The notes beneath the pieces were generated by a model, which was not told where the DNA came from, ran no database searches, and was given only the letters and a program-made list of their open reading frames with translations. Shown piece after piece: positions 1,859 to 22,787 of a stretch of DNA of 24,511 bases. The translations under genes and the position numbers were made by a program. Position 1 is the first letter of the stretch, and every line of letters begins with the position of its first letter. The stretch lies in the IMG/VR virus record IMGVR_UViG_3300016464_000088, positions 1 through 24,511 of that record; one strand, given 5' to 3'. This DNA is from a virus. Lineage: Duplodnaviria; Caudoviricetes.

Positions 1859-1863
1859 TTATT

Positions 1864-4563: not shown

Positions 4564-4566
4564 CGC

Positions 4567-4857
4567 TTATCGCCCCATGATCTGTTTGATTCTTTTTCTT
4601 AGCCATTGTTCCCAAGGCTGAGTCATACCCTTAGGTGCTTGTTTTGACCAACCTTCATCCAAACGCTGTGCATATGGATAATCTGCTGAGATAGTATCCC
4701 CTTGCAGAGTAGTTCTACGACGAGCATTTCCTGAACGGATAGGAGTTAAACTACGAAACTCAGCCAATCCTTGTCTAGGCACTTTGGCCAACTCTTGTTT
4801 GATCTTTTTTATTTCACCTGTCATAAGATCATTGACATCTACTTTAACTTCTACCAT
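4567..4857 (-). CDS. HK97 gp10-like neck/tail completion protein
   Basis: TPIRSGNARR...YAQRLDEG..QAPKGM motifs; start reassigned to ATG 4857 (GGAG SD). Confidence 0.75.
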   Translation of the reverse strand: MVEVKVDVNDLMTGEIKKIKQELAKVPRQGLAEFRSLTPIRSGNARRRTTLQGDTISADYPYAQRLDEGWSKQAPKGMTQPWEQWLRKRIKQIMGR

Positions 4858-5436
4858 GTTTACGCTCCATCTTCTTGTCTTTGACAGCATCTAGCATGGC
4901 TCTCATCTGTTTTTGTGAAAGTTTAGACCTTGCGGGAGCCGCACCCTGAGGTGCTTTTATGCTTGACTGCTGTGCCTCTTGATATTTACTATACCTATGA
5001 AAGGTATCTAACACATACAAATCAAATGTAGTAGCACAGGCCAATGCTTCAGATGGCAGCATCTTATAGGTTTTAGCGAGGTTATGGAGTGTTAGAACCA
5101 TCTGTGCTTCATCCGCTCCCCAGTCTGGTTCCTCGCCTATTACTTTCCCAGTGTTTCAACCACTTTCTGGATGATACGGATTAGGATCTGAGTAGGCAAC
5201 ATCACATCATCTTTGATCACTATTTTGCCTTCTTCATCTAGGATAAGGTCCTTGACGATCTTGATGATTTCTTCTGGGTTGTCTTGTTTGACGCTGGCTA
5301 ACTTCATGAACTTATCTAAGGGTTGACGATCCCAGGTCCAAAACTCTAGTTCTTCACCTAGTTCTTGGCGAGTCTGTTCGTCATCTAATACCACTTTGAT
5401 CAGTTGTGGTTTGCTGGCTATTTGATTGATTTTCAT
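4844..5436 (-). CDS. Tail assembly chaperone, -1 frameshifted long form (gpGT-like)
   Basis: GGGAAAG just before the chaperone stop; the -1 frame reads GKVIGEEPDWGADEAQ directly into track ORF 4844..5101. Confidence 0.85.
5140..5436 (-). CDS. Tail assembly chaperone (gpG-like)
   Basis: 98 aa between tail tube and tape measure; AAGGAG SD; ends at a slippery site. Confidence 0.85.
   Translation of the reverse strand: MKINQIASKPQLIKVVLDDEQTRQELGEELEFWTWDRQPLDKFMKLASVKQDNPEEIIKIVKDLILDEEGKIVIKDDVMLPTQILIRIIQKVVETLGK
5143..5149 (-). other. Programmed -1 ribosomal frameshift site G GGA AAG
   Basis: Identical to the lambda G/T slippery heptamer, in the right frame and syntenic position. Confidence 0.9.
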
Positions 5437-5439
5437 CTT

Positions 5440-5613
5440 TTAATCTCCTTGTCTATTAATCAGTGTATTGGCCAGGGCTAGTAAGAATCTTATTCTACCC
5501 TGTGCTTTTTGTATGTCGCCTTGAGCACAACGGATTTCGTTCTGCGTCTTGGCTATTTCTGCGATCATTGATTGCAGTAGTTCTTTGTCTGTCTTTGAAT
5601 CTAAGATATCCAT
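5440..5613 (-). CDS. Hypothetical 57-aa coiled-coil protein
   Basis: Below track cut-off: MDILDSKTDKELLQSMIAEIAKTQNEIRCAQGDIQKAQGRIRFLLALANTLINRQGD. Fills the gap between the promoter at 5630 and the chaperone. Confidence 0.75.
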   Translation of the reverse strand: MDILDSKTDKELLQSMIAEIAKTQNEIRCAQGDIQKAQGRIRFLLALANTLINRQGD

Positions 5614-5629: not shown

Positions 5630-5637
5630 TATTTATA
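5630..5637 (-). promoter_or_regulatory. T4-type late promoter TATAAATA
   Basis: Exact consensus, intergenic, directly downstream of a terminator and upstream of the tail chaperone/tape measure genes. Confidence 0.75.
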
Positions 5638-5643
5638 GCCTCT

Positions 5644-5673
5644 AAAGAAAAAGGGGGTTTTTACGCCCCCTTA
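5644..5673 (-). terminator. Rho-independent terminator after the tail tube gene
   Basis: Minus strand AAGGGGG-cgtaaaaa-CCCCCTT followed by TTTCTTT. Confidence 0.85.
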
Positions 5674-5698
5674 ATCATCGCTCCCTGGGCGGGATTGA

Positions 5699-6175
5699 TT
5701 ACGCTACTGTGTAATCACCAGTTACAGTGATAGTGAATGGAGAGACCCATACTGGACTATCTGCTGAAACTGTTGGTGCTAGACCAGTGACATAGCCAGA
5801 ACCTGAAATGGTCTTGCCATTACCGCCTGAGTCTGTGTCACCTAGGTATAGATCAAAATCAATCAAGACCTTATTCTTGCTTAGACCAAAAATACCATAT
5901 TCAACGGCTGTGTCAGTTGGAGAACCGCCTGAGCCAAAGAACTTGTCTTGATCTAAAACAATATTACCACTTATACTGTTGGTAGCAGTTGTAGCGATTT
6001 GTTTCTTAGAACCGCTGTCTAGTTGTGTCCAAGTGAAAACATCGTTAGCATTATTGATAGTGATGTCCTGTAGTGCTGGCACAGCCATTCCTGTGTCAGC
6101 CGCATTAGAATTAACACTGATTGTCAATGTTGCTTGAACTCCGTTTACCCCTGGTGCTGGATAAATGTAAGCCAT
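5699..6175 (-). CDS. Major tail tube protein
   Basis: 158 aa, beta-rich, ends SGSGYVTGLAPTVSADSPVWVSPFTITVTG; synteny. Confidence 0.85.
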   Translation of the reverse strand: MAYIYPAPGVNGVQATLTISVNSNAADTGMAVPALQDITINNANDVFTWTQLDSGSKKQIATTATNSISGNIVLDQDKFFGSGGSPTDTAVEYGIFGLSKNKVLIDFDLYLGDTDSGGNGKTISGSGYVTGLAPTVSADSPVWVSPFTITVTGDYTVA

Positions 6176-6186
6176 AGTTATATTCC

Positions 6187-6582
6187 TTATGTTGAAAGTT
6201 TAGTAAATCTAAGATCTAGTTCAGTAACCAGCAGGTCTGCTTCAATGGTAGTATTGACCACACATTCTCTGCGGTTTACACCTGAGATAGTTGTGATGTC
6301 TTTACCACGCTTGATGTCACTGACTAGAGTTTCATAGTTACTGGGTAGTTGTTTAGCGTCGCAGGCGAAAAAGACCCTGACCACACCTGTTTCTGCATTG
6401 ATATTCACGCCATCAAGAGTTTGTAGAATAGGCTCATTGTTGTATTCAACCACATCCACATAGATCTTCTTGGGATTCTTTAGATACAGGGCTGTGCCTG
6501 ACTCTTCCCAAGGAACTTCTTGGCTCACTACAAATGAACCAAGGCTCAGTGTGTTGATGTATTCAATGATTTCTGTTCTCAT
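6187..6582 (-). CDS. Tail terminator / completion protein (putative)
   Basis: 131 aa directly upstream of the tail tube; call rests on synteny. Confidence 0.6.
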   Translation of the reverse strand: MRTEIIEYINTLSLGSFVVSQEVPWEESGTALYLKNPKKIYVDVVEYNNEPILQTLDGVNINAETGVVRVFFACDAKQLPSNYETLVSDIKRGKDITTISGVNRRECVVNTTIEADLLVTELDLRFTKLST

Positions 6583-7088
6583 CTCACTCTCTTTAGATTG
6601 ACCTGACCTGGTGATTTCTCAGATGATTCAATGGTAGCATCATCATCAAAGTCATACCAGTCTCCAGCGGTTATGAGTTCAGACAATAAACTGTCTGCTC
6701 GCTGGGTGTAATAGCCCATCTTTTGGCGTTCTGCTGAATCCTCATTGCCAAAATCAGCGATTGAAGGCAGAATAAACTCAGCCAGTGCTGTGTAAACACA
6801 GAGATCTGTAAAGTCATTCTGCCTTGCTTTGATTCTGTCAGGATCTAGAGCAGGAATATCTGCCACAGTCCGTATGGTAGTAGAGGTATTACGATTTACG
6901 AAATAACTCCTCCACCAGGCTGAGTTTCGCAATCTTGTTAGAATGCGTTCTGTAGCCCTTACCAACTGACTGTCTACGATGTCATCAGAGAGGCCTTCGT
7001 TGGCATCAAAAAGTCGTGAATCTTTGCTCACAACATCTTGAAACTCCGCAAAACTGACTGTAACGCCGTTTTCAGTAACGAAAGCCAT
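6579..7088 (-). CDS. Head-tail connector/adaptor (putative)
   Basis: 169 aa helical protein right after the major capsid gene; AGGAG SD. Confidence 0.65.
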   Translation of the reverse strand: MAFVTENGVTVSFAEFQDVVSKDSRLFDANEGLSDDIVDSQLVRATERILTRLRNSAWWRSYFVNRNTSTTIRTVADIPALDPDRIKARQNDFTDLCVYTALAEFILPSIADFGNEDSAERQKMGYYTQRADSLLSELITAGDWYDFDDDATIESSEKSPGQVNLKRVR

Positions 7089-7100
7089 CTTGATCTCCTA

Positions 7101-7961
7101 TTAGATGCTAGAATCGTATTTTAGATAACGGCCATAACCGTCATACAACTCGCCAACACCGTAAACGGCAGTAGCAACTAACTCATCTGCACGAAGACTT
7201 GCATCACGCTGAGTTTCAATCTTGATGTCTTGCATCATTGCTAGACCCAATGCATCTCTGTGGAACACAGCACCTGGGAAGTCACCAGCGTTGGTAACAT
7301 AGTCAATGTTAGAAGTTTCATAGATTGGGATACCTGCTAACATACCTACAAAGCCCATTTGCATTGCTTCGTTAGCAACATTGGTTACACCACCGCCGCC
7401 TGTGAATGCAACAGAACCACTTGTGGTCAATGCTTTCTTGAGATCAAATGCGATCTCTGGGTGTAGAACTGCTACACAGCCTGCTGGATCAACACCAGCA
7501 CCACGCAACTTGGCCACTGACTTGAAGATCGCTTCAGCAGTGATTTGAGTTGTGTAGTCACCTTCACCTGCAGAGAAACCTGCGAATAGTGCTGTTAGGT
7601 CTTTGTCCATCTTAGCAGCGATGGCTTCACCAAATAAACGGCCTACATCAGCGATCACATTAGATGCAGAAGCGTTACGAGCCATATCTGTCACAGTGGT
7701 CATGATACCAACTTCACCAACTGTTAGAACTGCACCAGAAGTAGCAACTTCAGTGTTGGTTAGGTCAGTGCCTTCATTTACACCAGCGGCAGTCTGCTTT
7801 GGATATACAGGAACTGTCACTGTCTTACCGCTACCTAGTGGTAGAGTAAAGTTACGAACTAATCCACGCATGATGGATCTTTCTTGAGCAACGAACAGGG
7901 CTTCTGCTACGATGCTTGGGAGTAAGTCATTTAGACTTGTGGTTGTGCTTTCATTAGCCAT
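7101..7961 (-). CDS. Major capsid protein (HK97 fold)
   Basis: 286 aa; GKTVTVP, EGTDL, AVLHPE, GMLAGIPIYETSN, FHRDALGLA, VYGVGEL motifs; follows the scaffold. Confidence 0.93.
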   Translation of the reverse strand: MANESTTTSLNDLLPSIVAEALFVAQERSIMRGLVRNFTLPLGSGKTVTVPVYPKQTAAGVNEGTDLTNTEVATSGAVLTVGEVGIMTTVTDMARNASASNVIADVGRLFGEAIAAKMDKDLTALFAGFSAGEGDYTTQITAEAIFKSVAKLRGAGVDPAGCVAVLHPEIAFDLKKALTTSGSVAFTGGGGVTNVANEAMQMGFVGMLAGIPIYETSNIDYVTNAGDFPGAVFHRDALGLAMMQDIKIETQRDASLRADELVATAVYGVGELYDGYGRYLKYDSSI

Positions 7962-7982
7962 AATAGTTTTCCTTTATATGTT

Positions 7983-8669
7983 TTATCGTATGCCAAGGGC
8001 CTTACGATGTTCTTTATACAAGGCACGGTGTTCTGGATTTGACATGTCAAGTTTGGTGATGTCAACCTTCTTGGCCATGGCCTTGTCAGTGATATTGCTT
8101 CTGGTTGCAGTTGTAGCAGGATTGGCAGTTCTAAAGTGAGGATTTGTGTCTAAGAACTCTTTGACTAAATCTTCTACGCCTATGGGTTCACCTTTGTCTG
8201 AATAACGAACTGAGCCCTTGCTATCTACTACTTCAACTTCACCGCTGTCATTTAAACGAATATTAGACGATAATAGAGCCTTGACTTGATCAGCGTTGAC
8301 AGCATTGTATTTTGCCGCGGCACTGAGTAAAGGTGTATTGATCTTATATTCTTTGATCACAGCATCTCTCTTTGAGATTTCAGCATCCTTTTTGGCCGCA
8401 AGTTCTTGCAAGGTCTTCTCAAACTCCCCGCGTTTGATCTGTTGTTCCTGTTGCTTCTTTTCCCATTCTGTTTTAATGGTTCTAAGTTCTTCAGGATCAC
8501 CCAAATCTTCATATTTTGACTGGAACTTCTTCTCTAGTTGAGATTTTGTTCTAGCCAAGATAGCATTGACTTCTTCTTGCGTGAATGTCTTTGTGGCCTG
8601 TTGTGCCTGAAGTGCAGAATCCGCTGCGGGTTCAGTTCCCATATCCGTTACCAATGTATTTTCTGACAT
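7983..8669 (-). CDS. Capsid scaffolding protein
   Basis: 228 aa; KTFTQEEVNAI motif, charged coiled coil; GGAGGT SD; precedes the capsid gene. Confidence 0.88.
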   Translation of the reverse strand: MSENTLVTDMGTEPAADSALQAQQATKTFTQEEVNAILARTKSQLEKKFQSKYEDLGDPEELRTIKTEWEKKQQEQQIKRGEFEKTLQELAAKKDAEISKRDAVIKEYKINTPLLSAAAKYNAVNADQVKALLSSNIRLNDSGEVEVVDSKGSVRYSDKGEPIGVEDLVKEFLDTNPHFRTANPATTATRSNITDKAMAKKVDITKLDMSNPEHRALYKEHRKALGIR

Positions 8670-8700
8670 TGTTGCATCACCTCCAATGAGTTATAATAGT

Positions 8701-9129
8701 TTATTTATTAAGTTCTGATTGATTCAGGTCTATTTCATGACTATCTGCGTTTATCTTCTGCCTAAGTTCTCTGAGTCTTGATCTATCCTGTTGGATCAAT
8801 ATGCTCACAGGACTTGCGAATGGGCCATATCCAGGATAAGAAAACAGCCATTCATCCTCACCATGATTCAATCCCTGACAGATGGCTTCCACTGAATCAT
8901 CTGGTTCATTGATCACATACACACGAGCTTCTAGATCACCTAGTGGTTCTACTGATCCTGTATATTCTTGTATCTTGATCTTACCGTTTAGGTAAGCTGT
9001 ATAGGCCCAAGGGCACTCTACACGAATGCTCTTGAAGTAACTATACCAATCAACGCTTTGGTGGTTTGCGACCTTTTCCACGACCTCTTCCCATATTAGG
9101 CTCCTTGTATGTTGGGTGTAGATATTCAC
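8701..9129 (-). CDS. Hypothetical protein (true start probably further downstream)
   Basis: Open frame filling the gap between endonuclease and scaffold; ECPWA and LFSYPGYG motifs; function unknown. Confidence 0.6.
   Translation of the reverse strand: MNIYTQHTRSLIWEEVVEKVANHQSVDWYSYFKSIRVECPWAYTAYLNGKIKIQEYTGSVEPLGDLEARVYVINEPDDSVEAICQGLNHGEDEWLFSYPGYGPFASPVSILIQQDRSRLRELRQKINADSHEIDLNQSELNK
8702..8708 (-). promoter_or_regulatory. T4-like late promoter ATAAATA for scaffold/capsid genes
   Basis: AATAAATA overlaps the upstream stop codon, about 33 nt before the scaffold ATG. Confidence 0.65.
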
Positions 9130-9400
9130 TTACTGGATCTGCTGTCAAATACTTTATAAGATTATTTGCTATCGCAGCCAGCCTGCCTATATCTACACGA
9201 TTGCGGGGCATATTGTTTTCTATCTTGCCTAATAGGGCGTTACAGCCTCTATGAAGCACGCCTCTTATTTGACCCGTCTTATGACAGTGATCTAATACAG
9301 CATCATCTAAAACAGTTTGCCCACATAGAGAACAACAATGACCCTGGCGGATCAACTGCTGTTCTCTTAACTCCTTTACTTCTCTATACTTTAATTTCAT
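9050..9400 (-). CDS. Recombination endonuclease VII family protein (T4 gp49-like)
   Basis: CSLC...VLDHCHKTGQIRGVLHRGCNALLG matches the endo VII His-Me signature. Confidence 0.9.
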   Translation of the reverse strand: MKLKYREVKELREQQLIRQGHCCSLCGQTVLDDAVLDHCHKTGQIRGVLHRGCNALLGKIENNMPRNRVDIGRLAAIANNLIKYLTADPVSEYLHPTYKEPNMGRGRGKGRKPPKR

Positions 9401-9480
9401 CCTTTACTTACTACCCAATAAGGCAGGTAGTAGGCAAATAAGAACATCATAACCCAAAAGTCTAAGATGTTTTCAATCAT
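9397..9480 (-). CDS. Putative 27-aa hydrophobic peptide
   Basis: MIENILDFWVMMFLFAYYLPYWVVSKG; ATGA overlaps with both the portal stop and the endonuclease start. Confidence 0.55.
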   Translation of the reverse strand: MIENILDFWVMMFLFAYYLPYWVVSKG

Positions 9481-10988
9481 TCAGAATCTTCTTTGTGATA
9501 CCATCCTTGATTGGCAAGCACAATATGTTCTTCTTGTGTTCTTGCTACACGCTCCTCACCAGTTACTGGATCCTTCATTGTGTGAGGAGTGAATTCATAG
9601 TAATCATCTTCTTCTGGAACAGAATTAGGTTTGATGATGCGATTGTCTTGTATAGTAGCCAACTCATCTTCATCAAGATCTAACCAGTCTAGAATCTTAG
9701 CATCAATGGCTGCACGAACTCTAGGATCAGCAGGCTGTGCGGCAGCGGCTTCACGCAACTGCGAGATTTCTTTGCCAGTGTCACGAATGTTGAAACTACC
9801 TGGGTAGTCTATTTCACCATCCCAAACTGTGCCCATATACTCGCACCATATCTTCCACATTTGCTCTTCAGCCAACTCAAGATTGTCTGCTTTTTCACTC
9901 AGTCGTGCATTCAGCAATTGAAATTCTGTTTCCATAGCAACACCTGATAGTGTGCGGCTTTCTGTGGCACGAACAGCACCAGTGTTGGCCATCTTGTCAA
10001 TGGCTGCGACCGTGGCTTCTATGCTCTTGTATATTGAATCCACAGAAGCGCCACCAAACTCTAGGATATAGGGTTTTAGTCCAGGGTCTAGATTCTCTGG
10101 CATATGGATCAGTGAACCTGCTCCTGAACCCGCTTGTGTTTCTGGTGTTTTCACAAGACTTGGGTGGCTGTCTAGTCTAATGCTTTGCTCTACTTCTGAT
10201 GTGCAGTTATAGATATATTTCTGTGCGTCTGCGATGTCTGAAATGTCTGAAACACCAAAGCCTCTGACTATTGAACGACCATTGTAGGCACAGACAGCAG
10301 GTATTTTACCTAGTTGATTGACCTCAACAGTTTCTTCCATGATTAGGTCTTTCTTGGTATTGACCACTGTGGTTTTGATTTCTGATTCAGTCCACTCACG
10401 GACTGTGCGTAGATCTCCTGTGACATCTTCTAGATAACGGATATAGGTTAGGACCACACGACCATTGGGCTGACGCTTGTAGTTCCAATCTAACACTACC
10501 ATAGGTGTCAATAGACTCACATAAGGACGGATGCCCAAGGCCTGTTCATCTGCCACAGTCTGTGCGCCAACATTGGGTTTTGAAACAATGATCCAACAGT
10601 GACCAAACACTGATGACCAAGTAGACACATCTTTCATAAATGCATTTAGACTGCGTCCATCTAGATCAGAATCATAAAGAAAATCTTCTAATTCAGGTAG
10701 ATTAGTTATTGAACCAAAATCTCTGTCTGGATCTTCACGGAATAAGAAACTGTTATACACTGAAATCACTGACTGGCAGTGATTGTCTAAGGGTGTGGTT
10801 TTCAGTCTGGCCGCATACTCTGAGTCTGTTTCCAGTTGATAGCGAGTTAGGTGTCCTGCTTGGCGATATTCCATACCACCAACATATGATTCTAGCAGGA
10901 ATTGCCAGCGTCCATAGTAGTCTTGATACAGTTGGTTGCCCTGTAGCAATCGTTTAAGTTCGTCTGATAGGGTGTCAATGACATTCAT
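9477..10988 (-). CDS. Portal protein
   Basis: 503 aa directly after terL; 'LSGVAMETEFQLLN' portal-type motif; GAGG SD. Confidence 0.9.
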   Translation of the reverse strand: MNVIDTLSDELKRLLQGNQLYQDYYGRWQFLLESYVGGMEYRQAGHLTRYQLETDSEYAARLKTTPLDNHCQSVISVYNSFLFREDPDRDFGSITNLPELEDFLYDSDLDGRSLNAFMKDVSTWSSVFGHCWIIVSKPNVGAQTVADEQALGIRPYVSLLTPMVVLDWNYKRQPNGRVVLTYIRYLEDVTGDLRTVREWTESEIKTTVVNTKKDLIMEETVEVNQLGKIPAVCAYNGRSIVRGFGVSDISDIADAQKYIYNCTSEVEQSIRLDSHPSLVKTPETQAGSGAGSLIHMPENLDPGLKPYILEFGGASVDSIYKSIEATVAAIDKMANTGAVRATESRTLSGVAMETEFQLLNARLSEKADNLELAEEQMWKIWCEYMGTVWDGEIDYPGSFNIRDTGKEISQLREAAAAQPADPRVRAAIDAKILDWLDLDEDELATIQDNRIIKPNSVPEEDDYYEFTPHTMKDPVTGEERVARTQEEHIVLANQGWYHKEDSE

Positions 10989-11002
10989 TTAGTTTTCCTC
11001 AT

Positions 11003-12238
11003 TTATGCCAGAGCATGACCCCAGCGTTGTGGTTTTAGTAGTTCTGGATCAACATCACGGCGCACTGGGAATATGTAGTCTACTAGGTAGCCTAGTGCGT
11101 CATTTTGATGATCATAACCAGAATCCTTGTCAGGTTGGCTGGTGCCTGCCTTATAGGTCTGGCGTTCTAATCCTTCAATAGTATATTTACACTTGGGGTC
11201 TATGAACAGCCTTCTAATGCCTATGGTATCGCACAATCTTGAGTTTACTGCGTTGATACGATCTCTCACGGGTGTGTGTGAGTTAGGCACCTTGACTGTG
11301 AATCCTGCGTTGCGTAATATGGTGATGTCAGTTTGACCACCCGCAGATGATTTACGCTGATTGCCCGCTGGATCTGGATAAACCCATATTCGCTGTTTGG
11401 GGAAGCGTTGTTTCAGTTCGTCACACATTTCCTGGGTGTTAGAACTGAAAATCCTTACTTCATCTATGATATGTAAGGTATCTCCAGACTTATGAGCAAT
11501 GACCGCTGACATTGGATCTATGTTAAAGTCCATGCCCACATAGATCTGTTCAGGCAAGGGGTCCATGTATTTACGGATATTGGCCTGGCGATCAAATGCG
11601 TAGTAAATCCTGCCAGCAAATGTTTCAAAAGTGGCCATGAACTCTTGACGGAATGTTCGCTCATCAAGATCACGCTTGGCTGCTTCTATTTCTTCTGGTT
11701 TGACATTGCCACCATCTACAGTGGTAAATGTCCATGAACGCCAACTGGCGTCTTCTAGTGAGTTTTGATATATTTCATAAGCCCAGTTGCCAATGCCCTT
11801 GGGTGTGCCAATGAAAAGAGCACCACCCTGCTTGTCAGCCAAAGTAGGTCTAAGAGTTTCATACCAAGCCTGTGGATCAATGTCAGCAAACTCGTCAAGC
11901 ACAATAAAATCAAGACCAACACCCCTAAGACTGTCATAGTTGTCAGCGCCTTTAAGGCTGATAGTAGAGCCATTAACAAGTTGAATAGTGAGTTCTGTTT
12001 CATTATGCTTTTTTACCCAGTTAAGATCCTGTAGGCGATTTTTCAGTTTACGCCACACGATCTGTTTGGCCATCTTGTAGGTAGGAGCCACATACCATAC
12101 TTCACGATCAGGTATACGGGCATGGTAGGCTAACTCACGGATGGCTAGATGTGTTTTGCCAAATCTACGACCTGCTATGACCACACGGAATCTTGTGGTG
12201 TCCTTGGCTATTTCCTGCTGTGGTCTACTCAGTGGCAT
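11003..12238 (-). CDS. terL: Terminase large subunit
   Basis: Walker A AGRRFGKT, Walker B FIVLDE, coupling motif IGTP, nuclease motifs GMDFN and DHQNDAL. Confidence 0.96.
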   Translation of the reverse strand: MPLSRPQQEIAKDTTRFRVVIAGRRFGKTHLAIRELAYHARIPDREVWYVAPTYKMAKQIVWRKLKNRLQDLNWVKKHNETELTIQLVNGSTISLKGADNYDSLRGVGLDFIVLDEFADIDPQAWYETLRPTLADKQGGALFIGTPKGIGNWAYEIYQNSLEDASWRSWTFTTVDGGNVKPEEIEAAKRDLDERTFRQEFMATFETFAGRIYYAFDRQANIRKYMDPLPEQIYVGMDFNIDPMSAVIAHKSGDTLHIIDEVRIFSSNTQEMCDELKQRFPKQRIWVYPDPAGNQRKSSAGGQTDITILRNAGFTVKVPNSHTPVRDRINAVNSRLCDTIGIRRLFIDPKCKYTIEGLERQTYKAGTSQPDKDSGYDHQNDALGYLVDYIFPVRRDVDPELLKPQRWGHALA

Positions 12239-12726
12239 TATTCATCTTGGCTGAATGGCAAGGGTTTCTTGTCATCAGCATTGGTAGGTGTATCGCTCAT
12301 GCCCAGCATGTTCTTGGCAAGGAAGATCTGTAGAGCCGCATTGCCGTTTAGAGCATTCTTAAACATGGCATTGCGTAGCGCGGTCTTCATATCTTGGCGA
12401 CCTTTTGCCATGATCTCCGCAAAGTTATATCTCAGTGTATCTTCTTTGATGTCAAACCACACGGCTATTTCACGATCACTGCAACCCAATGCGGCTAACT
12501 TATAGATGTCCTCTGGAGGCACTATGCGTTTTCTCAGTCCACGACCTACTTCATAGCCAAATACTTCTATGCTTTTCAGTTGTTTGGGTTTGTTGCCAGT
12601 CTTAGAGGGATCCCTTGGAGGTGGTTCTTCATAGGGAATGACCTCCAAGTTCTGTTCAGAGGCCTGTTCAGATGGTTTAAGGTCAAATGCTGCCGCTTCA
12701 ATCACACGGCCTGGTTGGTTGCTCAT
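12238..12726 (-). CDS. terS: Terminase small subunit
   Basis: HTH-like LAALGCSDREIAVWFDIKEDTL plus 'GNAALQIFLAKNMLG'; abuts terL. Confidence 0.8.
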   Translation of the reverse strand: MSNQPGRVIEAAAFDLKPSEQASEQNLEVIPYEEPPPRDPSKTGNKPKQLKSIEVFGYEVGRGLRKRIVPPEDIYKLAALGCSDREIAVWFDIKEDTLRYNFAEIMAKGRQDMKTALRNAMFKNALNGNAALQIFLAKNMLGMSDTPTNADDKKPLPFSQDE

Positions 12727-12731
12727 ATTAC

Positions 12732-12739
12732 TATTTATA
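12732..12739 (-). promoter_or_regulatory. T4-type late promoter TATAAATA, 5 nt before the terS ATG
   Basis: Exact consensus, embedded in inverted repeat 12721-12744. Confidence 0.78.
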
Positions 12740-12760
12740 TGAGCCCCTTAGTTTGGTCAG

Positions 12761-13027
12761 TTAAACTGATGAGTTTTGCTGTTTTAACACCAAGAGTTCC
12801 TGCTGTAGGTGATCTAGACGCTGACGCTGTGCTTTGTTGTCTATGATAAGGCGGTGATTCTGCTGACTTAACTCACTGATGATCTGTTCATTGTGATTTA
12901 GTCTCTGTGCAAGACTTTTCATGATCTCAGAACCACTGTTAATGGCCAAGACACATTGTTGTATATTGTTTCTGGCCAACAAGAGTTCTTCATATGGATC
13001 CCAACCAGTGCGCCAATCATCGTTCAT
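12761..13027 (-). CDS. Hypothetical coiled-coil protein
   Basis: 88 aa; GTAAATA-N5-ATG upstream. Confidence 0.7.
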   Translation of the reverse strand: MNDDWRTGWDPYEELLLARNNIQQCVLAINSGSEIMKSLAQRLNHNEQIISELSQQNHRLIIDNKAQRQRLDHLQQELLVLKQQNSSV

Positions 13028-13032
13028 AAAGA

Positions 13033-13039
13033 TATTTAC
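13033..13039 (-). promoter_or_regulatory. Late-promoter variant GTAAATA
   Basis: Same 5-nt spacing to ATG as the sites at 12732 and 13832; overlaps the upstream stop codon. Confidence 0.5.
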
Positions 13040-13512
13040 TCTTGCACTTCAAATAGGTTGTGGAACACAGTGGTTCTGGTGTATTCTTCTGTTTGTTCAA
13101 CAATCACTTTGGGCATGGGCTTCTGGACTTTTTTAGCGTCCTCATTGGGGATGTCTAGATCGTGTATGCTATTCCAGACTTCACGGAAAGTGTTGATCAT
13201 GGCCCAGGCTATGCGTTTATTGGCTTTCTTGTCTAGAGCACGATCCGTGCTGTGGCGATCCTTCTTTAAGGCTGTGATGGCCCGCTCATAGTTGTTCTTG
13301 TGATAGGCTTTGACAGAGTCAGGTGCTGTGTCTATGACAGCACCAAATCCTGCCAACATGTCACTCCAATCTTGATTGTCCCAACGGTGTAGATAGCCAT
13401 CCCAGATCTGTCTGTTGTTGATGTCTATCTTCTTACCTGTGGTCTGTATGATGTTGTTCAGTGTTTCTGCTATAGAGCCTATGTGATCTAGGCCTCTTGC
13501 GATGTTTGCCAT
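13036..13512 (-). CDS. Hypothetical protein
   Basis: 158-aa ORF in the tightly packed minus-strand run; GGAG SD. Confidence 0.75.
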   Translation of the reverse strand: MANIARGLDHIGSIAETLNNIIQTTGKKIDINNRQIWDGYLHRWDNQDWSDMLAGFGAVIDTAPDSVKAYHKNNYERAITALKKDRHSTDRALDKKANKRIAWAMINTFREVWNSIHDLDIPNEDAKKVQKPMPKVIVEQTEEYTRTTVFHNLFEVQE

Positions 13513-13826
13513 TTACGCTTCTCCTGGTTTTCAAGTTTTTTGTATAGTCGCTGACGACGGATGTGATCTAATCTCAGTGTGCATGTGACATTGTTTCTGT
13601 GCCAAGCACCTTTGGGATCAGTTCTGGTTAGGCAGTATTGATTTGAAGCACGACCTTTGAGATGCCAATGATCCTGCCACAGCCATTGAAAATCCTCAAA
13701 TGTCAACTGCCAAGATTCTCCTCTGTATGAGGCCTGTGCTTTCATCTGTAGCCAAGCACAATACTGCTGGTGAGGGATTTCACCTTGGACTTTCCATACA
13801 TGAGGTCTAGATCCTGTTCTTGGCAT
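13488..13826 (-). CDS. HNH-like (His-Me finger) endonuclease-related protein
   Basis: A..RGESWQLTFEDF..LW...GR....YCLTR.D.KGAW...NV pattern resembles small phage HNH-like nucleases. Start reassigned to ATG 13826 (MPRTGSRP). Confidence 0.6.
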   Translation of the reverse strand: MPRTGSRPHVWKVQGEIPHQQYCAWLQMKAQASYRGESWQLTFEDFQWLWQDHWHLKGRASNQYCLTRTDPKGAWHRNNVTCTLRLDHIRRQRLYKKLENQEKRKWQTSQEA

Positions 13827-13831
13827 AAGTT

Positions 13832-13839
13832 TATTTATA
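13832..13839 (-). promoter_or_regulatory. T4-type late promoter TATAAATA, 5 nt before ATG 13826
   Basis: Exact consensus in a short AT-rich intergenic gap. Confidence 0.75.
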
Positions 13840-13854
13840 CAATGAATAAAGACA

Positions 13855-14151
13855 TTATTCATTTCCTGGAGCACATTCTGCTATGCGTTCACTGATCCAC
13901 TGTTGTATCTGCTGTTGTCTAGATTCAGTGCAGTGAATATAACCTGTTTCCAGACTAGGAGACCAATGTAATATTTCAGGGCCCCATGCACCCTTGTATT
14001 GCTGTTGATCACTGTGTTTGATTGCATTGAATAATCTATGGCGAGGATCCTTGGGTTGCCATATTTTGATATAAGAATATTGCACCAGTTCACTGTGTTC
14101 ATACCAGCGCATAACTGGCCGCCAAGCAACATCAACGACTTTTTTGGACAT
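13855..14151 (-). CDS. Hypothetical protein
   Basis: 98-aa Trp/Tyr-rich ORF contiguous with its neighbours. Confidence 0.65.
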   Translation of the reverse strand: MSKKVVDVAWRPVMRWYEHSELVQYSYIKIWQPKDPRHRLFNAIKHSDQQQYKGAWGPEILHWSPSLETGYIHCTESRQQQIQQWISERIAECAPGNE

Positions 14152-14347
14152 AGCCTATGGGTTCGCCACGCTGGGTGTAGATAGTTTCACGGCCTGAGGT
14201 AGCACCACAGAATCTGGGATAGCGGCCTTGATTGTTTTTCAGTTGGCAGGGGTCTTGGCGATCATAGAAACTGCTGAGTATAAGGGGTTCGCCATAGGTG
14301 CCACAGCCTGTGAGTATTAATAGGGTGAATAGACAAATGATTCGCAT
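14132..14347 (-). CDS. Small lipoprotein
   Basis: Signal peptide with lipobox LTG-C (MRIICLFTLLILTGC); GGAG SD. Confidence 0.75.
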   Translation of the reverse strand: MRIICLFTLLILTGCGTYGEPLILSSFYDRQDPCQLKNNQGRYPRFCGATSGRETIYTQRGEPIGYVQKSR

Positions 14348-14348
14348 A

Positions 14349-14556
14349 GAGTCTCCAAAAAAGGTAAGGGTGGGACTTTGGTTCTAACCCTGAGTCCCGC
14401 AGGGGCCTTTCCTCGCAGATCTGATTCGTGGCTATCGCGGAGATGATCTGCCGTTCCCATAGAACCTTGGGGCCACTGAAGTTTTGGGCACAGACTTCTG
14501 GCTGCGAGAAAGAGCCATGCCTGGCTCAGCCCTGTCACAACCACCTGGAGTCACTC
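14349..14556. ncRNA. Candidate ~210-nt structured RNA / cis-regulatory element
   Basis: GC-rich intergenic island with nested inverted repeats (gggact/agtccc, gcagatc/gatctgc, gaagt/acttc, gagcca/tggctc), a closing stem ctcca/tggag and complementary loops ggttcta/tagaacc. Confidence 0.6.
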
Positions 14557-14736
14557 AGGGGTTGCCAGTAGAACCCAATCTTCACAGAAATCCTCTGCTA
14601 GGTATTCTAGGTCAAATCGCTCAGAAACTCGTTCAATACCCGCCTGATAGCCCACAGCCAAATATTGGTCCGTGAGTTTAAACACCGTGGCAGTCTTGTT
14701 GCCCTGCTGATATTCAGATAATATTTGCGGAGTCAT
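14551..14736 (-). CDS. Hypothetical protein
   Basis: 61 aa ending 'AEDFCEDWVL'; in operon context. Confidence 0.7.
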   Translation of the reverse strand: MTPQILSEYQQGNKTATVFKLTDQYLAVGYQAGIERVSERFDLEYLAEDFCEDWVLLATPE

Positions 14737-14893
14737 AATAGCGTTCTCTGTGATTCAGTTCCTGTTGTTCTCGTTGTGCTCTGCGTAGTTCTCTAATCTT
14801 ATTTAAGGCAGCCTGTCTACGCTGATCGTGTTTTAGGCGTTCTTCTGCATTGAGCCTGCGGATCTGTTCAATCAAGGTTTCGTGAGTGTTCAT
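14714..14893 (-). CDS. Hypothetical basic coiled-coil protein
   Basis: Start reassigned to ATG 14893 (AGGAG SD, ATGA overlap); 59 aa. Confidence 0.65.
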   Translation of the reverse strand: MNTHETLIEQIRRLNAEERLKHDQRRQAALNKIRELRRAQREQQELNHRERYYDSANII

Positions 14894-15045
14894 TCTTGGA
14901 TCTCCTGCTCTTGTGCTACCATCCACTGTAAAGTGGGTATAACCTCACTCTCAGCAAATGCCCATTCTTCTTGCTCAGTGGGCTCACGGCCATAGATCTT
15001 CTTAAACACCTGTTGGACCCTAGTCCTGATTTCACTCTCAGTCAT
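14890..15045 (-). CDS. Hypothetical 51-aa protein
   Basis: Not in track: MTESEIRTRVQQVFKKIYGREPTEQEEWAFAESEVIPTLQWMVAQEQEIQE; GGAGG SD; ATGA overlaps at both ends. Confidence 0.7.
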   Translation of the reverse strand: MTESEIRTRVQQVFKKIYGREPTEQEEWAFAESEVIPTLQWMVAQEQEIQE

Positions 15046-15428
15046 TCTTGAGCCTCCATTTTGGCACGGAAGGCTTCTGCAATGAGTCTGTCACAGTATT
15101 CTGGATAACTGCGGATAATGTCCCAACCTTCGCCAAACAGCCATTGGTCGTCACAAGCGTTCTTTTCTGCCAGTGCTTTGAACTCTTCAAAAGTCAAGGG
15201 CCAGGGTGTATTAGTATAACCTAGTTCTTTGGGTGTAGGTGTAACTTCTGCTAGATCACCTTCTTGAATCATTGCCGCAATGATATCTTGGCTGGTAGTT
15301 TGGTGACTCATACCCCAATCAAAATAATCTTCTGGGCTGTTGTCTTGGCTGATCCAAGTGTAGCGTCCAGAATCTAACTGAGTTTGGACTTCTGCAAATA
15401 CCTTGCGTAGTGTGCGATTATTAGCCAT
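15042..15428 (-). CDS. Hypothetical acidic early protein
   Basis: First gene after the consensus sigma70 promoter; likely start ATG 15428 (MANNRT), alternative 15467. Confidence 0.7.
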   Translation of the reverse strand: MANNRTLRKVFAEVQTQLDSGRYTWISQDNSPEDYFDWGMSHQTTSQDIIAAMIQEGDLAEVTPTPKELGYTNTPWPLTFEEFKALAEKNACDDQWLFGEGWDIIRSYPEYCDRLIAEAFRAKMEAQE

Positions 15429-15473
15429 TTGTGTTTCTCTCACAAGTGCAACGGAACATACCGTCATAGTATT

Positions 15474-15502
15474 ATTATACGACTATTTTGGCTCCGTGTC
15501 AA
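15474..15502 (-). promoter_or_regulatory. Consensus sigma70 promoter
   Basis: TTGACA (15502-15497), 17 nt, TATAAT (15479-15474); perfect consensus. Confidence 0.9.
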
Positions 15503-15683
15503 TGGCTTTGGGATCCAAAATCTCCCCTATGCCCGCCAATAAACACAAGGTGGCCTGCCATTCTTGGGTGTCCCAATAATAGACTTCCAAAATGAAATCA
15601 TATGAGATTTTGGGCTGGTCTATGACAAGATATGTGAGACCCTGTTCTTCTAGTTGTTGTCTAGTGACCTTTAACACAGGCAT
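15483..15683 (-). CDS. Hypothetical protein
   Basis: 66-aa ORF abutting the upstream gene. Confidence 0.6.
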   Translation of the reverse strand: MPVLKVTRQQLEEQGLTYLVIDQPKISYDFILEVYYWDTQEWQATLCLLAGIGEILDPKAIDTEPK

Positions 15684-15684
15684 A

Positions 15685-16041
15685 TTAGATCAGGGAAGCA
15701 CGACCCACGCGGTGTGCATAGTGAGATTTCAATGAGAGTTCTTTGACCACATCCTGCCACTGATTATCTGGAGTCAGTGGCTCCTTCATCTGCTGTTCAT
15801 AGTATTGATCCACTGTCTTGGTGTTTATAGCCTGTGCCAAATCATTTGGTGTATAGGCAGCCCAGTCTAAATGACTTTTGAGTCTGAACAGTTCTTTGTG
15901 TTTGGCTAGATAAAAGATCTCTCCATGATCCGTGATTCTTATCTGTCCAGAATATTCTTGTGCTAGAACCGTGGCCTTGAGTCTCCTTGAGATCCTCAAC
16001 CATCGTTGAACCAATACAGGATCTGTGATGTTAGAACACAT
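15685..16041 (-). CDS. Hypothetical protein
   Basis: 118-aa ORF overlapping the upstream stop. Confidence 0.7.
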   Translation of the reverse strand: MCSNITDPVLVQRWLRISRRLKATVLAQEYSGQIRITDHGEIFYLAKHKELFRLKSHLDWAAYTPNDLAQAINTKTVDQYYEQQMKEPLTPDNQWQDVVKELSLKSHYAHRVGRASLI

Positions 16042-16330
16042 ATCTTGGGTCCTTGTCTAGTTGACGCACTGGCCATAGATCAATAAGGCTGTGTCCTAGA
16101 TAGGTCTTTTGTTTCTCTGTCCATGATTCTCCATTCCATGAGTTTAACAGATCACGGATATTGCTTCTGTGGTGATTTCTTTCAGTCCACTGAGGTGTTA
16201 AATGCATCATTAGCCATTGACCCAGTGAATAGAGATCTTGATCTCTTTGTTCATGAATCCATTTAGTGCGTTCATATTGATTACCTAGGACAATAATATC
16301 CATTTCATCTAACAGATTTTCACTTAACAC
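16031..16330 (-). CDS. Hypothetical protein
   Basis: 99 aa; GTG start with AAGGAG SD. Confidence 0.72.
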   Translation of the reverse strand: MLSENLLDEMDIIVLGNQYERTKWIHEQRDQDLYSLGQWLMMHLTPQWTERNHHRSNIRDLLNSWNGESWTEKQKTYLGHSLIDLWPVRQLDKDPRYVF

Positions 16331-16362
16331 CTATAACTCCTTGATTAGTTATTCAATGATTT

Positions 16363-16391
16363 ATTGTATATTATTGGTCTTGCTAAAGCAA
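16363..16391 (-). promoter_or_regulatory. Putative sigma70 promoter
   Basis: TTGCTT, 17 nt, TACAAT upstream of the ORF at 16330; the -35 lies in palindrome CTTGCtttaGCAAG. Confidence 0.5.
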
Positions 16392-16797
16392 GCCCAGTGA
16401 TATGTAATAAAATCCAACTTCACTGCGTTCAGTCGTCTTTTATTCCAATCACCTGAGTAAAAGCACTCATTTGAGACACAAACATTAGTTGACTTGAAAT
16501 GTGGAGTCAAGAGGGGACAAATGTAGTTTCTGAAACAAAAAAAATATTCTGCTTCTCACTACTTTTGTCCCTACCTCAACTACACAAATCAACTAATGTG
16601 TAAGTCCCATCTCTGGGGAGGTATCTTAGGCTGCTTTACGGAAGAAGTTTGGCTATGTTTAACTTCCAACCATCGCTGGTAGCAGTGGACTACACCCTAG
16701 TGACTTTATCCAAGATAACTTACAGTCACATTATTGGGCAGTGGAGGATATATCCCTATTATGAACTCCACCTTTATTGTTTCTACCATTAGGTAGT
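16375..16797 (-). ncRNA. Candidate large structured ncRNA or replication-origin region (~420 nt)
   Basis: Longest ORF-free gap in the window, tiled with hairpins including a ~118-nt stem-loop at 16482-16599 whose G-U pairs favour the minus strand. Confidence 0.65.
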
Positions 16798-17130
16798 AGG
16801 GTTCTGTGTTTTAGCCTGTTTAAGTTGTTTGATTTTCATTCTTGCCTGTTGTAGTTTAATGTTTTTGTGATGCCTGGTATTAGTGCCGTTGATTGCTATA
16901 TGTTGTAGTTTAGTTAAATGCTTGTGCCTTAAGGGCTGTTTTTGATTATAGACCCAGTGCCAGAAGCAGTCAAGACTCTGTTTGTTGCTTTTGGTAATAT
17001 CTTCCCAAAACTCTTCTTTGAGTCTAATCAATAATACTAAATCATCTGCACATGGATGAGATTCTAGGTCTTTGGCTTTGATGCCTCTCTGCCAACAGAA
17101 TAGATTGGTTTGGTGTTGAATAGATTTCAT
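16789..17130 (-). CDS. Hypothetical 113-aa basic protein, predicted sRNA-regulated
   Basis: Start reassigned to ATG 17130 behind the SD-like GAAAGGGA; Lys/His-rich C-terminus. Confidence 0.72.
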   Translation of the reverse strand: MKSIQHQTNLFCWQRGIKAKDLESHPCADDLVLLIRLKEEFWEDITKSNKQSLDCFWHWVYNQKQPLRHKHLTKLQHIAINGTNTRHHKNIKLQQARMKIKQLKQAKTQNPTT

Positions 17131-17175
17131 TGCGTCCCTTTCAAATACTTGCCATTGCCTGAATAGTTGCAAATG

Positions 17176-17182
17176 TATTTAG
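17176..17182 (-). promoter_or_regulatory. Late-promoter variant CTAAATA
   Basis: Intergenic, downstream of the terminator; predicted +1 at 17170. Confidence 0.55.
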
Positions 17183-17221
17183 CATAGACAAAAAAAAGTG
17201 TTTGAAAATAGACAGAATAGT

Positions 17222-17326
17222 CAAACGAAAGCCCCATGGCGGGGCTTTCTAACAGAGTTTGAAATGTTAGCAACTATTTCCAGGACATCCCTAAATGGCA
17301 AGAAAGGGACTAGGTAGAACTCTGCT
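17222..17326 (-). ncRNA. Candidate ~100-nt antisense-type sRNA
   Basis: Bounded by a CATAAATA promoter and an intrinsic terminator. 5' stem AGCAGAGUU/AACUCUGUU starts at the predicted +1; two internal hairpins; complementary to the minus-strand leader at 17134-17170. Confidence 0.72.
17223..17249 (-). terminator. Rho-independent terminator (possibly bidirectional)
   Basis: GAAAGCCCC-N5-GGGGCTTTC perfect 9-bp inverted repeat, followed by GTTT on the minus strand. Confidence 0.85.
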
Positions 17327-17331
17327 ATGTG

Positions 17332-17339
17332 TATTTATG
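17332..17339 (-). promoter_or_regulatory. T4-like late promoter CATAAATA
   Basis: Overlaps the stop of the ORF ending at 17335; predicted +1 (17326) is the first base of the sRNA stem. Confidence 0.65.
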
Positions 17340-17877
17340 TTTCTTTGTTTTTGTCGTGGTAAAAAGTGATGGTTTCTTGATCACTGTCCAAAATAGTTTT
17401 GGTCAACATGACTCGTTGGCGTTGTTGATTGCCCTGTGTGTTGTAGGCACCTTTGGTTTCACGCATAAAGTCATTGAATTTGATTGAAGCCGCTGAACCC
17501 TGTAGTTCAAATTTTCCATTAAATGGATTTTGAAACATACCACAGGTCACGCATTTTTGTCGCCAGGCTTTTTTGCTGTTCTTTTGGTGTAACTTCGCTT
17601 CTGTTTCACGACCGTTGGGGCAGGTTCTTCCACAGTCTGCACACTCACAGGCTGTTCGTTTGACTTGGGTGATCTGCGGAGGAAATGTAGGATTGGTTCC
17701 GTCAAACATTTCCAAAAAGACTTGTTCGTGTTCATCTTGATATAGTTCCTCTTTGGTTGGTCTTCCTGGTTTGCGGGGTCGTTTGGCATCCCCTGAAATG
17801 GTTCCAGTGACTGTTTTGGGTATGCGCCATTCCGCTACCTCTGTGAGTTTTTGTTTGAAAAGTTTGTCGTCCATCAA
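17335..17877 (-). CDS. Putative Zn-binding DNA-binding protein
   Basis: CECADCGRTC and CVTC cysteine clusters; AT-hook-like RPRKPGRP. Confidence 0.7.
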   Translation of the reverse strand: MMDDKLFKQKLTEVAEWRIPKTVTGTISGDAKRPRKPGRPTKEELYQDEHEQVFLEMFDGTNPTFPPQITQVKRTACECADCGRTCPNGRETEAKLHQKNSKKAWRQKCVTCGMFQNPFNGKFELQGSAASIKFNDFMRETKGAYNTQGNQQRQRVMLTKTILDSDQETITFYHDKNKET

Positions 17878-17898: not shown

Positions 17899-18144
17899 TT
17901 AAAACTTCATTAAAATGGTTCCAATCACACCTATGAGTGCAACCACGATAGATCCTGCAGAAGATATGATAGTGGTCTTCAATGACTTTTGACTGTCAAT
18001 GATTTCTTTTTGAACGCTTTCCATCCTAACCTCCAAGGTGATCAATCTCAACTCTAACTGTTTATAGCGTTGGCTGCAGATTGACACATGGGCTGGTAAA
18101 CTTTCGTGTTCTATTTCTGTAGTTTCTGCTAGATCACTCATCAT
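17899..18144 (-). CDS. Holin-like / XhlA-like membrane protein
   Basis: Coiled coil followed by one C-terminal TM helix (IVVALIGVIGTILMKF); downstream of the fibre genes. Confidence 0.55.
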   Translation of the reverse strand: MMSDLAETTEIEHESLPAHVSICSQRYKQLELRLITLEVRMESVQKEIIDSQKSLKTTIISSAGSIVVALIGVIGTILMKF

Positions 18145-18467
18145 GCACTCCTTGCTTCTACTTTCACACGGAAGTTTCTGCGATCAATCAATCCATTGGC
18201 AGTGGTAACTCTGGCAGTGACTGTATAGACTTTGCCTTCCTGTCCATCGCTGAGTTCAATGTAGGTTCTAGTGCCTGACTGCACACCTGAACTGCGATTG
18301 ATCAACGGATCTGGATCATTGACACGAGCCTGGATTGAATATACCACTGCTGAGATTGAATCTCCCGTGGGCAACCATTCACTCCAATCAAAAGTGTAGA
18401 ATAATCTTGCTTCTGTGTCTTTTTTGATAGTAAGACCTTGGACGGTCTGTTCAAAACCTGTGGCCAT
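18141..18467 (-). CDS. Phage fibre-adaptor-like virion protein
   Basis: KD.EA.L.YTFDWSEWL..GDSI...G..G..Y.VT..VTT..G...RR.F pattern typical of small proteins found next to fibre genes. Confidence 0.7.
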   Translation of the reverse strand: MATGFEQTVQGLTIKKDTEARLFYTFDWSEWLPTGDSISAVVYSIQARVNDPDPLINRSSGVQSGTRTYIELSDGQEGKVYTVTARVTTANGLIDRRNFRVKVEARSA

Positions 18468-18468
18468 A

Positions 18469-22776: not shown

Positions 22777-22787
22777 AGTCTGCTCCT

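Follow-up and report, generated by a model that had tools for sequence, protein, structure and literature searches.

The window described here is the whole of a 24,511-nucleotide (nt) linear virus contig, IMG/VR record IMGVR_UViG_3300016464_000088, for which CheckV estimates a completeness of 86%. All its real genes lie on the minus strand (Table 1), and their products match PHROG or Pfam families for terS, terL, portal, scaffold, capsid, neck, tape measure, distal tail, hub, a gp77-like adaptor and a LamG fibre. A sequence-only reading of this DNA had proposed a small tailed phage that builds its own virion and is wired to T4-type late promoters; the family matches to capsid, scaffold, portal, terminase, tape measure, distal tail and fibres bear out the first part. 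The second part concerns a short word, TAAATA, found ahead of the transcription units. To judge from their conservation, the TAAATA boxes are a real and strongly selected promoter system in the clade to which this phage belongs.

Ten relatives of 26.8-31.4 kb (G001-G010, four of them with terminal repeats) have a gene layout like that of the window, which by comparison lacks the remainder of the tail tip, the gp80-like gene and fibres. A set of 16 genomes, six with terminal repeats, was made up of these ten, G012 and G014-G016 (two with terminal repeats), GenBank entry DSL-LC06 and the window. Promoter conservation was scored in 105 sequences, namely 25 of 80 capsid-hit loci, the terL loci, the ten full genomes and the window. 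The 25 capsid-hit loci were picked after their GC and motif counts were known, and the terL loci were kept unselected. The other 55 capsid-hit loci, mostly low-GC and HTVC111P-like, show no strand bias of TAAATA and were excluded from the clade set. The clade is large, uncultured and widespread among freshwater phages, with genomes of approximately 30 kb: terL patterns match some 760 IMG/VR stretches (a tool estimate, of stretches and not genomes), and the 180-amino-acid (aa) marker protein falls into 567 clusters at 50% identity.

The sites named by the earlier reading are all present on the minus strand: TATAAATA at 5630, 12732 and 13832, ATAAATA also at 8702 and 17332, GTAAATA at 13033 and CTAAATA at 17176. 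The counts of the longer words in the window are not above chance; TATAAATA occurs three times against a shuffle mean of 1.14 (8 of 100 shuffles reach 3), and ATAAATA five times against 4.62 (48 of 100 reach that number). The shorter word TAAATA occurs 11 times on the coding strand and never antisense, and its antisense form is the most depleted hexamer of the coding strand (0 against 7.5 expected under a fourth-order Markov model). The arrangement TAAATA-N5-ATG is found three times, against a shuffle mean of 0.38, and none of 100 shuffles reaches three. Among 188 sites the two bases 5' of the core vary, being TA in 47, so the element is better written nnTAAATA than TATAAATA. The description of a T4-late-type motif at unit starts thus stands, with a core of TAAATA and a free -13 position in place of the longer consensus. 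The statement that no site lies mid-gene holds for the 7-mer ATAAATA and fails for TAAATA, of which the copies at 14800, 11568, 11184 and 4983 are intragenic. The box at 8702 overlaps the final codons of the upstream open reading frame (ORF), and those at 17332 and 13033 contain upstream stop codons.

A -35 hexamer is absent, with 5 of the 188 sites having one against 6.5 in shuffles. When the element is numbered -13 to -6 as in T4 (PMC2988020), a spacing of 5 nt places +1 at the A of the ATG, ie the predicted mRNA is leaderless. Downstream of a fourth box, 17332, the closing 5' helix of a conserved small RNA begins at the predicted +1. Over the 105 sequences, which were not de-duplicated, there are 550 coding-strand and 92 antisense sites, and the distribution of spacers to the ATG peaks at 5 nt (69 sites). 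The flanks of the sites are divergent among relatives, and separate Shine-Dalgarno sites are found 10-40 nt downstream of boxes.

Conservation was counted over distinct upstream regions, a box being scored when TAAATA lay within about 110 nt of the gene. It precedes the scaffold gene in 61 of 62, the 57-aa gene that follows the terminator in 34 of 35, terS in 25 of 29, the 112-aa gene in 29 of 36 and the gp80-like gene in 10 of 12; lower frequencies were found for the 88-aa gene (8/16) and the portal (11/69). Genes inside the units have almost none (capsid 0/58, tube 0/33, chaperone 0/35, terL 1/63). The upstream enrichment that had been put forward as a check is therefore seen at orthologous unit starts in related genomes, where the box is retained even when the genome is rearranged.

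Table 1. Features of the window, in window coordinates (all on the minus strand). Fractions are the distinct upstream regions, copies or genomes in which the feature is conserved.
Position	Strand	Feature	Conservation or remark
1..5613	-	Tail unit: 57-aa ORF, chaperones (by position), neck, tape measure, distal tail, hub, tail tip (cut by contig end)	
4983..4988	-	TAAATA within 85-aa ORF	Not generally conserved; possibly chance
5630..5635	-	TAAATA box, restart for chaperone, tape measure, distal tail and tip genes	34/35 relatives
5651..5672	-	Intrinsic terminator 3' of tube gene	Hairpin and T-run also in relatives
5699..8669	-	Scaffold, major capsid, connector, tail terminator, tail tube	Last three named by position only
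8702..8707	-	TAAATA box of scaffold-capsid-connector-tube unit	Predicted +1 8696; 61/62
9050..9400	-	Endonuclease VII-like HNH gene	Present in 5/11 genomes
9477..12726	-	terS, terL, portal	phrog_309, phrog_2, phrog_145
11184..11189	-	TAAATA within terL (C-K-Y codons), likely internal portal promoter	TGT AAA TAy in 35/35 distinct copies
11568..11573	-	TAAATA within terL, role uncertain	Partly conserved, 15/26 copies
12732..12737	-	TAAATA box, 5 nt to terS ATG	25/29
13033..13038	-	TAAATA box, 5 nt to ATG of 88-aa ORF (12761-13027)	8/16
13036..13512	-	158-aa ORF, exchangeable slot after HNH-like gene	At least 5 dissimilar 117-163-aa families in relatives
13488..13826	-	112-aa HNH/PacI-like protein gene	Sole non-structural gene in 16/16 genomes
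13832..13837	-	TAAATA box, 5 nt to ATG of HNH-like gene, predicted leaderless	29/36; 18 at exactly 5 nt
14800..14805	-	TAAATA within 58-aa ORF, upstream of 61-aa ORF	Conserved 6/6
15474..15502	-	Perfect sigma70-type promoter TTGACA-17-TATAAT, upstream of small variable ORFs	
16789..17130	-	ORF of unassigned function, predicted small-RNA target	
16945..16973	-	sigma70-type promoter TTGACT-17-TATAAT	
17176..17181	-	TAAATA box of 16789-17130 ORF	3/3
17221..17326	-	Conserved structured small RNA with terminator hairpin	
17332..17337	-	TAAATA box of small RNA; its TAA is the stop of the 180-aa ORF	Predicted +1 17326
17335..17874	-	180-aa Cys-rich protein gene, clade marker, candidate DNA-binding factor	14/16 genomes
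17899..24511	-	LamG fibre, 1435-aa fibre protein, gp77-like adaptor, 81-aa membrane ORF (possible holin)	

The word is also purged from genes. In the long ORFs of 11 genomes, compared with synonymous-codon shuffles, antisense TAAATA occurs 14 times within coding sequence where 127.8±9.3 copies are expected, and sense TAAATA 27 times where 104.2±9.4 are expected. Two control words are near expectation (166 against 161, 118 against 133), and two that overlap the motif are mildly low (199 against 238, 84 against 118). The ratio of observed to expected antisense copies does not exceed 0.31 in any of the 15 clade genomes (range 0.00-0.31), and for DSL-LC06 it is 0.17. It is 0.49-0.60 in HTVC008M and in the examined parts of T4 and DSL-LC02, and no antisense purge is found in HTVC111P (1.24), ten HTVC111P-like loci (1.25) or G011 (1.07). 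Since the hexamer is removed from both strands, the bare hexamer appears to act as a promoter by itself during growth of the phage. The copy within terL is spared: its C-K-Y codons spell the box in 35 of 35 copies, approximately 195 nt upstream of the portal gene, and it was likely retained on purpose as an internal promoter for that gene. Taken on this sequence evidence, the box is very probably a functional gp55-type promoter.

The clade promoters carry a further, weaker element, not noted in the earlier reading. C-R-W-W-W is found at -41/-42 in 34 of 84 de-duplicated sites, compared with 9 of 139 sites in jumbo phages (Fisher p = 9e-10, which is overstated as the sites are not phylogenetically independent), with weaker peaks about every 10 bp. 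The promoters of T4 and HTVC008M are flat at this position, and within the window an exact match is present only at the 5630 site. A position near -41 suits contact with the C-terminal domain of the polymerase alpha subunit, as at an UP element, or a bend. T4 late promoters are defined as having no other upstream element, and a conserved extra one sets the clade outside that definition.

No self-encoded sigma factor was found by profile search of the window and its complete relatives, in agreement with the earlier reading. The phrog_234 profile matched none of 11 genomes, and Sigma70_r2 gave no real match in 17 records; HTVC008M was detected as positive control with the former and its gp55 with the latter. 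One Sigma70_r2 match in G010 (E 0.005) was ruled out by an internal stop. Six-frame translations of the 16 genomes gave no match below E 1.2 to a gp55 profile built on the T4 and HTVC008M proteins and ten gp55-like proteins of jumbo phages; its controls scored E 9e-90 and 3e-29.

Recognisable replication, lysis and integration genes are missing as well. PHROG and Pfam scans took in the 36 window proteins, two sets of further ORFs (77 and 71) from five genomes, 78 from G005 with alternative frames counted in, and a set of 116 from nine genomes; ORFs spanning the join of two sequence halves, and those above 700 aa in the 116-ORF set, fell outside the scans. Matches were to tail parts, methylases, glycosyltransferases, Dps-like proteins, nucleases of the HNH and GIY-YIG types and, weakly, one holin; among the scanned ORFs there was no polymerase, primase, helicase, integrase, endolysin or helix-turn-helix (HTH) regulator. 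As a control, this library recognised three proteins of HTVC111P (DnaD-like, endolysin and HTH), homologues of which were found in none of the 16 genomes. No host-integrated copy was seen among 12 loci from a GTDB scan (best terL match 50%, with no close relative and no host), among 20 metagenome contigs of at most 31.9 kb, or among further homologues, whose longest contigs were 32.9 kb for a set of 77 and 35.6 kb for the 120 listed of 241. The LamG fibre has one close viral locus and otherwise only cyanophage matches of about 35%, giving no link to a host.

A full virion module and gp55-type promoters in a genome with no sigma, replisome or lysin are most simply explained by a satellite that uses these three functions of a T4-type phage. 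We consider that the clade probably consists of non-integrating, helper-dependent, virophage-like satellites which make their own virion and borrow late transcription, and probably replication and lysis too. Taken singly, supply of the sigma factor by another phage is the likelier component, and borrowed replication and lysis are somewhat less secure but still favoured. The boldest form of the proposal, to which we incline less than to its opposite by a little, is that this common freshwater clade are true bacterial virophages: they would never integrate, would take late sigma, replisome and lysis from jumbo phages, and would out-compete the helper by means of the HNH-fold protein and the -41 element. 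A literature search that left out most subscription journals turned up no helper-dependent phage described as having gp55-type promoters.

The cycle might run as follows. After injection only the two sigma70 promoters would fire, giving small variable proteins. Once a T4-type phage had entered its late phase (the likeliest candidate being a freshwater jumbo phage whose gp55-like sigma has about 300 aa), host RNA polymerase carrying the helper's gp55-type sigma would read the boxes and all TAAATA promoters would fire, several of the mRNAs being leaderless. The -41 element might strengthen RNA polymerase binding, by which the satellite could compete with its helper. The helper replisome would then copy the genome, possibly from a nick made by the HNH-like protein, which might also load a clamp; the phage's own terminase would package it into its own head and tail, and release would be through the helper's lysis. 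Late transcription in T4 is enhanced when the clamp is loaded through a nick in the non-transcribed strand, according to the available text of PMC2988020; by analogy, the universal HNH-like protein may have a role here.

The relaxed TAAATA consensus is nearer to those of freshwater jumbo T4-type phages and of the pelagiphage HTVC008M than to that of T4. Predicted leaderless starts are frequent in the clade, as in HTVC008M (11 sites at 5 nt), whereas there are none in the 80 kb of T4 examined and one in 80 kb of DSL-LC02. A SegE-like gene of G003 and G004 has relatives outside the clade, 52-69% identical and on large contigs. Of 22 SegE-bearing contigs chosen for length, 21 have a gp55-like sigma in a frame of approximately 270-340 aa, and their completeness implies genomes of about 350 kb; one such sigma has its nearest counterparts in Phosso, PA5oct/MIJ3/Paride, Atu_ph07 and PBECO4-like jumbo phages. 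In five such jumbo records, with GC of 0.36-0.44, the word is purged, no box lies less than 5 nt from an ATG, and the logo is clade-like, with -13 free and A at -12 in 52% compared with 55% in the clade. These jumbo phages are a tentative choice of helper, plausible but slightly on the doubtful side. Activation by the gp45 clamp, part of the earlier reading, is not established because gp45 was not detected in 14 jumbo fragments, which counts against the helper proposal also. The CBB paper, in its available text, gives ATAAATA at 35 sites and a gp55-like sigma, with neither gp33 nor gp45 detected.

Several further points weigh against a satellite dependent on such a helper. No helper or host was observed in the data examined. 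Gene sharing with the jumbo class is thin, amounting to one family in 2 of 15 genomes and one more ORF in G008; the window shares no gene with the five jumbo records, and the link is circumstantial. The PA5oct paper, as far as its available part goes, lists only TATAATA and TTGAC motifs. Most small ORFs have no family, and so absence of a function here means absence of recognition. The -41 element is lacking in jumbo and T4 promoters, so an own co-activator is possible, and the 112-aa and 180-aa proteins are candidates for an own promoter factor or replication initiator. Survival is a difficulty for a phage that needs co-infection and does not integrate, and no means of waiting for a helper was found. 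Finally, in RNA library X5 a contig of the scaffold gene extends to 8802, beyond the predicted +1 at 8696; assembled contigs of this library cover 24 of 30 bins and, as contigs can neither rank genes nor show starts, were not used as evidence, nor is anything read into the uncovered bins of the early region.

The 112-aa and 180-aa genes are the only near-universal non-structural ones (16/16 and 14/16 genomes). The model of the 112-aa protein (pLDDT 92.7) is HNH/PacI-like, its best match being PacI with a middling Z of 5.3 (rmsd 5.2, 90 residues aligned), and there is a weak likeness to T4 Srd-type proteins (Z about 3). The protein has weak matches to HNH genes of T4-type phages and no sequence match in the PDB; on its modelled fold it may have a nuclease or DNA-binding role. 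The 180-aa model weakly resembles AP2/arm-type DNA-binding sheets (Z about 3). It has no fold match above Z 3.6, BFVD gives its own family only, and no cultured-phage match or usable Atlas match was found. Against a gp55-type sigma profile the hhalign probabilities of the two proteins were 0.3% and 5.0%. The 158-aa helical ORF was also considered as a hidden sigma and rejected, as its slot holds dissimilar families in relatives; it has no Atlas match. Genes in this slot are possibly for helper interference.

The phage could instead be autonomous and minimal, its own 112-aa or 180-aa protein firing the TAAATA promoters by binding the -41 element or RNA polymerase, with replication by host enzymes and an unrecognised initiator and with an unrecognised lysis protein. 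The fixed -41/-42 element, absent from T4-type promoters, speaks for this account, as do the weak fold likenesses just described and the presence of the 112-aa gene in every genome, where it can be reached by read-through from the sigma70 promoter at 15502; the abundance of the clade is also easier to understand without a helper. We nevertheless regard it as unlikely. Neither protein is sigma-like by hhalign, the 112-aa gene itself lies behind a TAAATA box, and the 180-aa gene is last in a late unit. The two-strand purge of the bare hexamer implies a word that fires by itself, box and spacing are identical to those of T4-type phages, and recognisable functions would have to have been lost three times independently.

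Reading of the boxes by a host sigma or a sigma70 variant, for example in stress or stationary phase, would tie the phage to the state of its host instead of to another phage. The relaxed -7 T in promoters of some Alphaproteobacteria would help this account, but TAAATA does not fit TAnnnT in either register, the -35 is absent, and the phage's own sigma70 promoters are canonical. We know of no bacterial sigma with a TAAATA consensus, and the missing replication and lysis genes would be left unexplained; the probability of this account seems to us low. Lower still, and in our view very low, is that of the word not being a promoter at all, ie a translation signal, a by-product of stop codons or a restriction site kept on one strand. 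Such an origin would agree with the chance-level counts of TATAAATA and ATAAATA in the window, with the three sites that overlap gene ends, and with the avoidance by the window of another word on one strand (TGATA, 0 on the coding strand against 72 on the other). It does not agree with a box that follows a terminator, precedes a non-coding RNA and coexists with separate Shine-Dalgarno sites, nor with the intragenic purge on both strands and the retention at the same unit starts in rearranged genomes.

Dependence on a helper, the preferred account, may be compared with known systems. The T4 family has late promoters served by gp55, gp33 and gp45, with ATAAATA in CBB and GAP32 and NATAAATA in cyanophage S-PM2 (available parts of PMC2988020, PMC5259590 and PMC2984593). 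The clade agrees with these in the core TAAATA at -11 to -6, the absent -35 and the siting at virion gene units, and differs in having no gp55 on the same genome, a free -13, the extra -41 element and a purge stronger than in the T4-type phages tested. The working principle would, by analogy, be closest to that of virophages and MiniFlayer. Sputnik, Mavirus and Guarani, as the accessible text of PMC6723459 describes them, are likewise small double-stranded DNA viruses with their own virion genes, and they carry the helper's late promoter motif upstream of genes, as the clade may do; they are eukaryotic, with Lavidaviridae-type capsids and giant-virus factories, whereas the clade is of tailed phages with putative dependence. 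MiniFlayer and MulchRoom share with the clade their own capsid and packaging genes, an HNH gene and the absence of key replication genes, and MiniFlayer also is non-integrating (PMC10690885, in part). They are without a full tail of their own, using a helper tail or a short fibre, whereas genes for tube, tape measure, distal tail, tip and fibres are all present in the clade. The main text of PMC10690885 does not use the word 'promoter'.

In the P4 system, the late promoter is switched on by the helper P2 activator Ogr. The cf-PICI, EPIP, Ando and P4 elements are small and finish their cycle with the aid of a helper, as is proposed for the clade, but differ in that they integrate and in taking over tails or capsids (PMC10690885, PMC13587820 and PMC12822802, available parts). 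Compared with PICI, cf-PICI, P4 and PICMI, no integrase family, no recognisable borrowed structural part and no primase was found in the clade, which is not a member of PICI, cf-PICI or P4. Known phage satellites take structural parts; the theft of expression and replication by an element with its own full particle would, if true, be the bacterial counterpart of a virophage. Many 'small lytic phages' of lake viromes might then parasitise jumbo phages and fail to plaque alone, the 760 or so stretches and 567 marker clusters being the reason for saying many, and the genome-wide TAAATA purge would be a sequence test for such parasites in any metagenome.

HTVC111P-type pelagiphages have a capsid 54-57% identical to that of the clade, a homologous terminase and a similar size. 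They differ in their DnaD-like, lysozyme and HTH genes (a divergent early module) and in lacking the TAAATA bias, and the clade looks like a derivative of this type that lost those genes. DSL-LC06 (L082, OR003941; proposed 'Nanhuiviridae') is a published complete 29.8-kb circular genome that shares the virion layout and the 112-aa family, shows clade-like promoter logic with TAAATA ahead of several of its units and the purge, and has many glycosyltransferase genes; its capsid is 42% identical. The available text of PMC10611076 treats it as an ordinary phage and mentions neither promoters nor helper dependence.

The small RNA (17326-17221) has three 9-nt stretches complementary to the leader (17170-17130) and ribosome-binding site of the next ORF, which none of 300 shuffles reaches, and both RNA and leader lie behind TAAATA boxes. 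In G005 the pairing sequences differ from those of the window and complementarity is retained. The RNA is likely an antisense regulator of that ORF. RNAs of the c4/CI type are phage antisense control RNAs, and the pair resembles these or a type I toxin-antitoxin pair. Rfam gave no match in the window and one chance match in relatives. The RNA type is wider than the clade, as G011 (62.8 kb) and G013 match its pattern; both were dropped from the clade set as unrelated phages with no purge. In G001-G004, L091, L097 and L109 the target ORF is absent, and downstream of the second box there is a conserved non-coding stretch with repeated GGCA and hairpins, a candidate for a second RNA or a replication origin. 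In the window, about 460 nt with no long ORF (16330-16790), downstream of the sigma70 promoter at 16973, are another candidate origin. Near-perfect sigma70-type sites are found in the same region as the perfect one (Table 1) in several relatives.

Outside the window, the unit corresponding to 17899..24511 begins in relatives at the TAAATA box ahead of the gp80-like gene. Near this gene several of G003, G005, G007-G010, G012 and G014 have opposite-strand TAAATA, and G008-G010 have one or two inverted ORFs, each behind its own box. A Dps/ferritin-like gene adjoins the portal in G007, G008, G009 and G016, and G007 and G008 also have an inverted glycosyltransferase. Type III restriction sites lead to strand-biased avoidance, and the TGATA bias of the window looks like one-orientation avoidance of such a site, a fingerprint of the host; the ten relatives have 25-77 copies on the coding strand. 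AGCT occurs only twice in the window and is similarly low in G001, G003, G005, G006 and the jumbo fragment G021.

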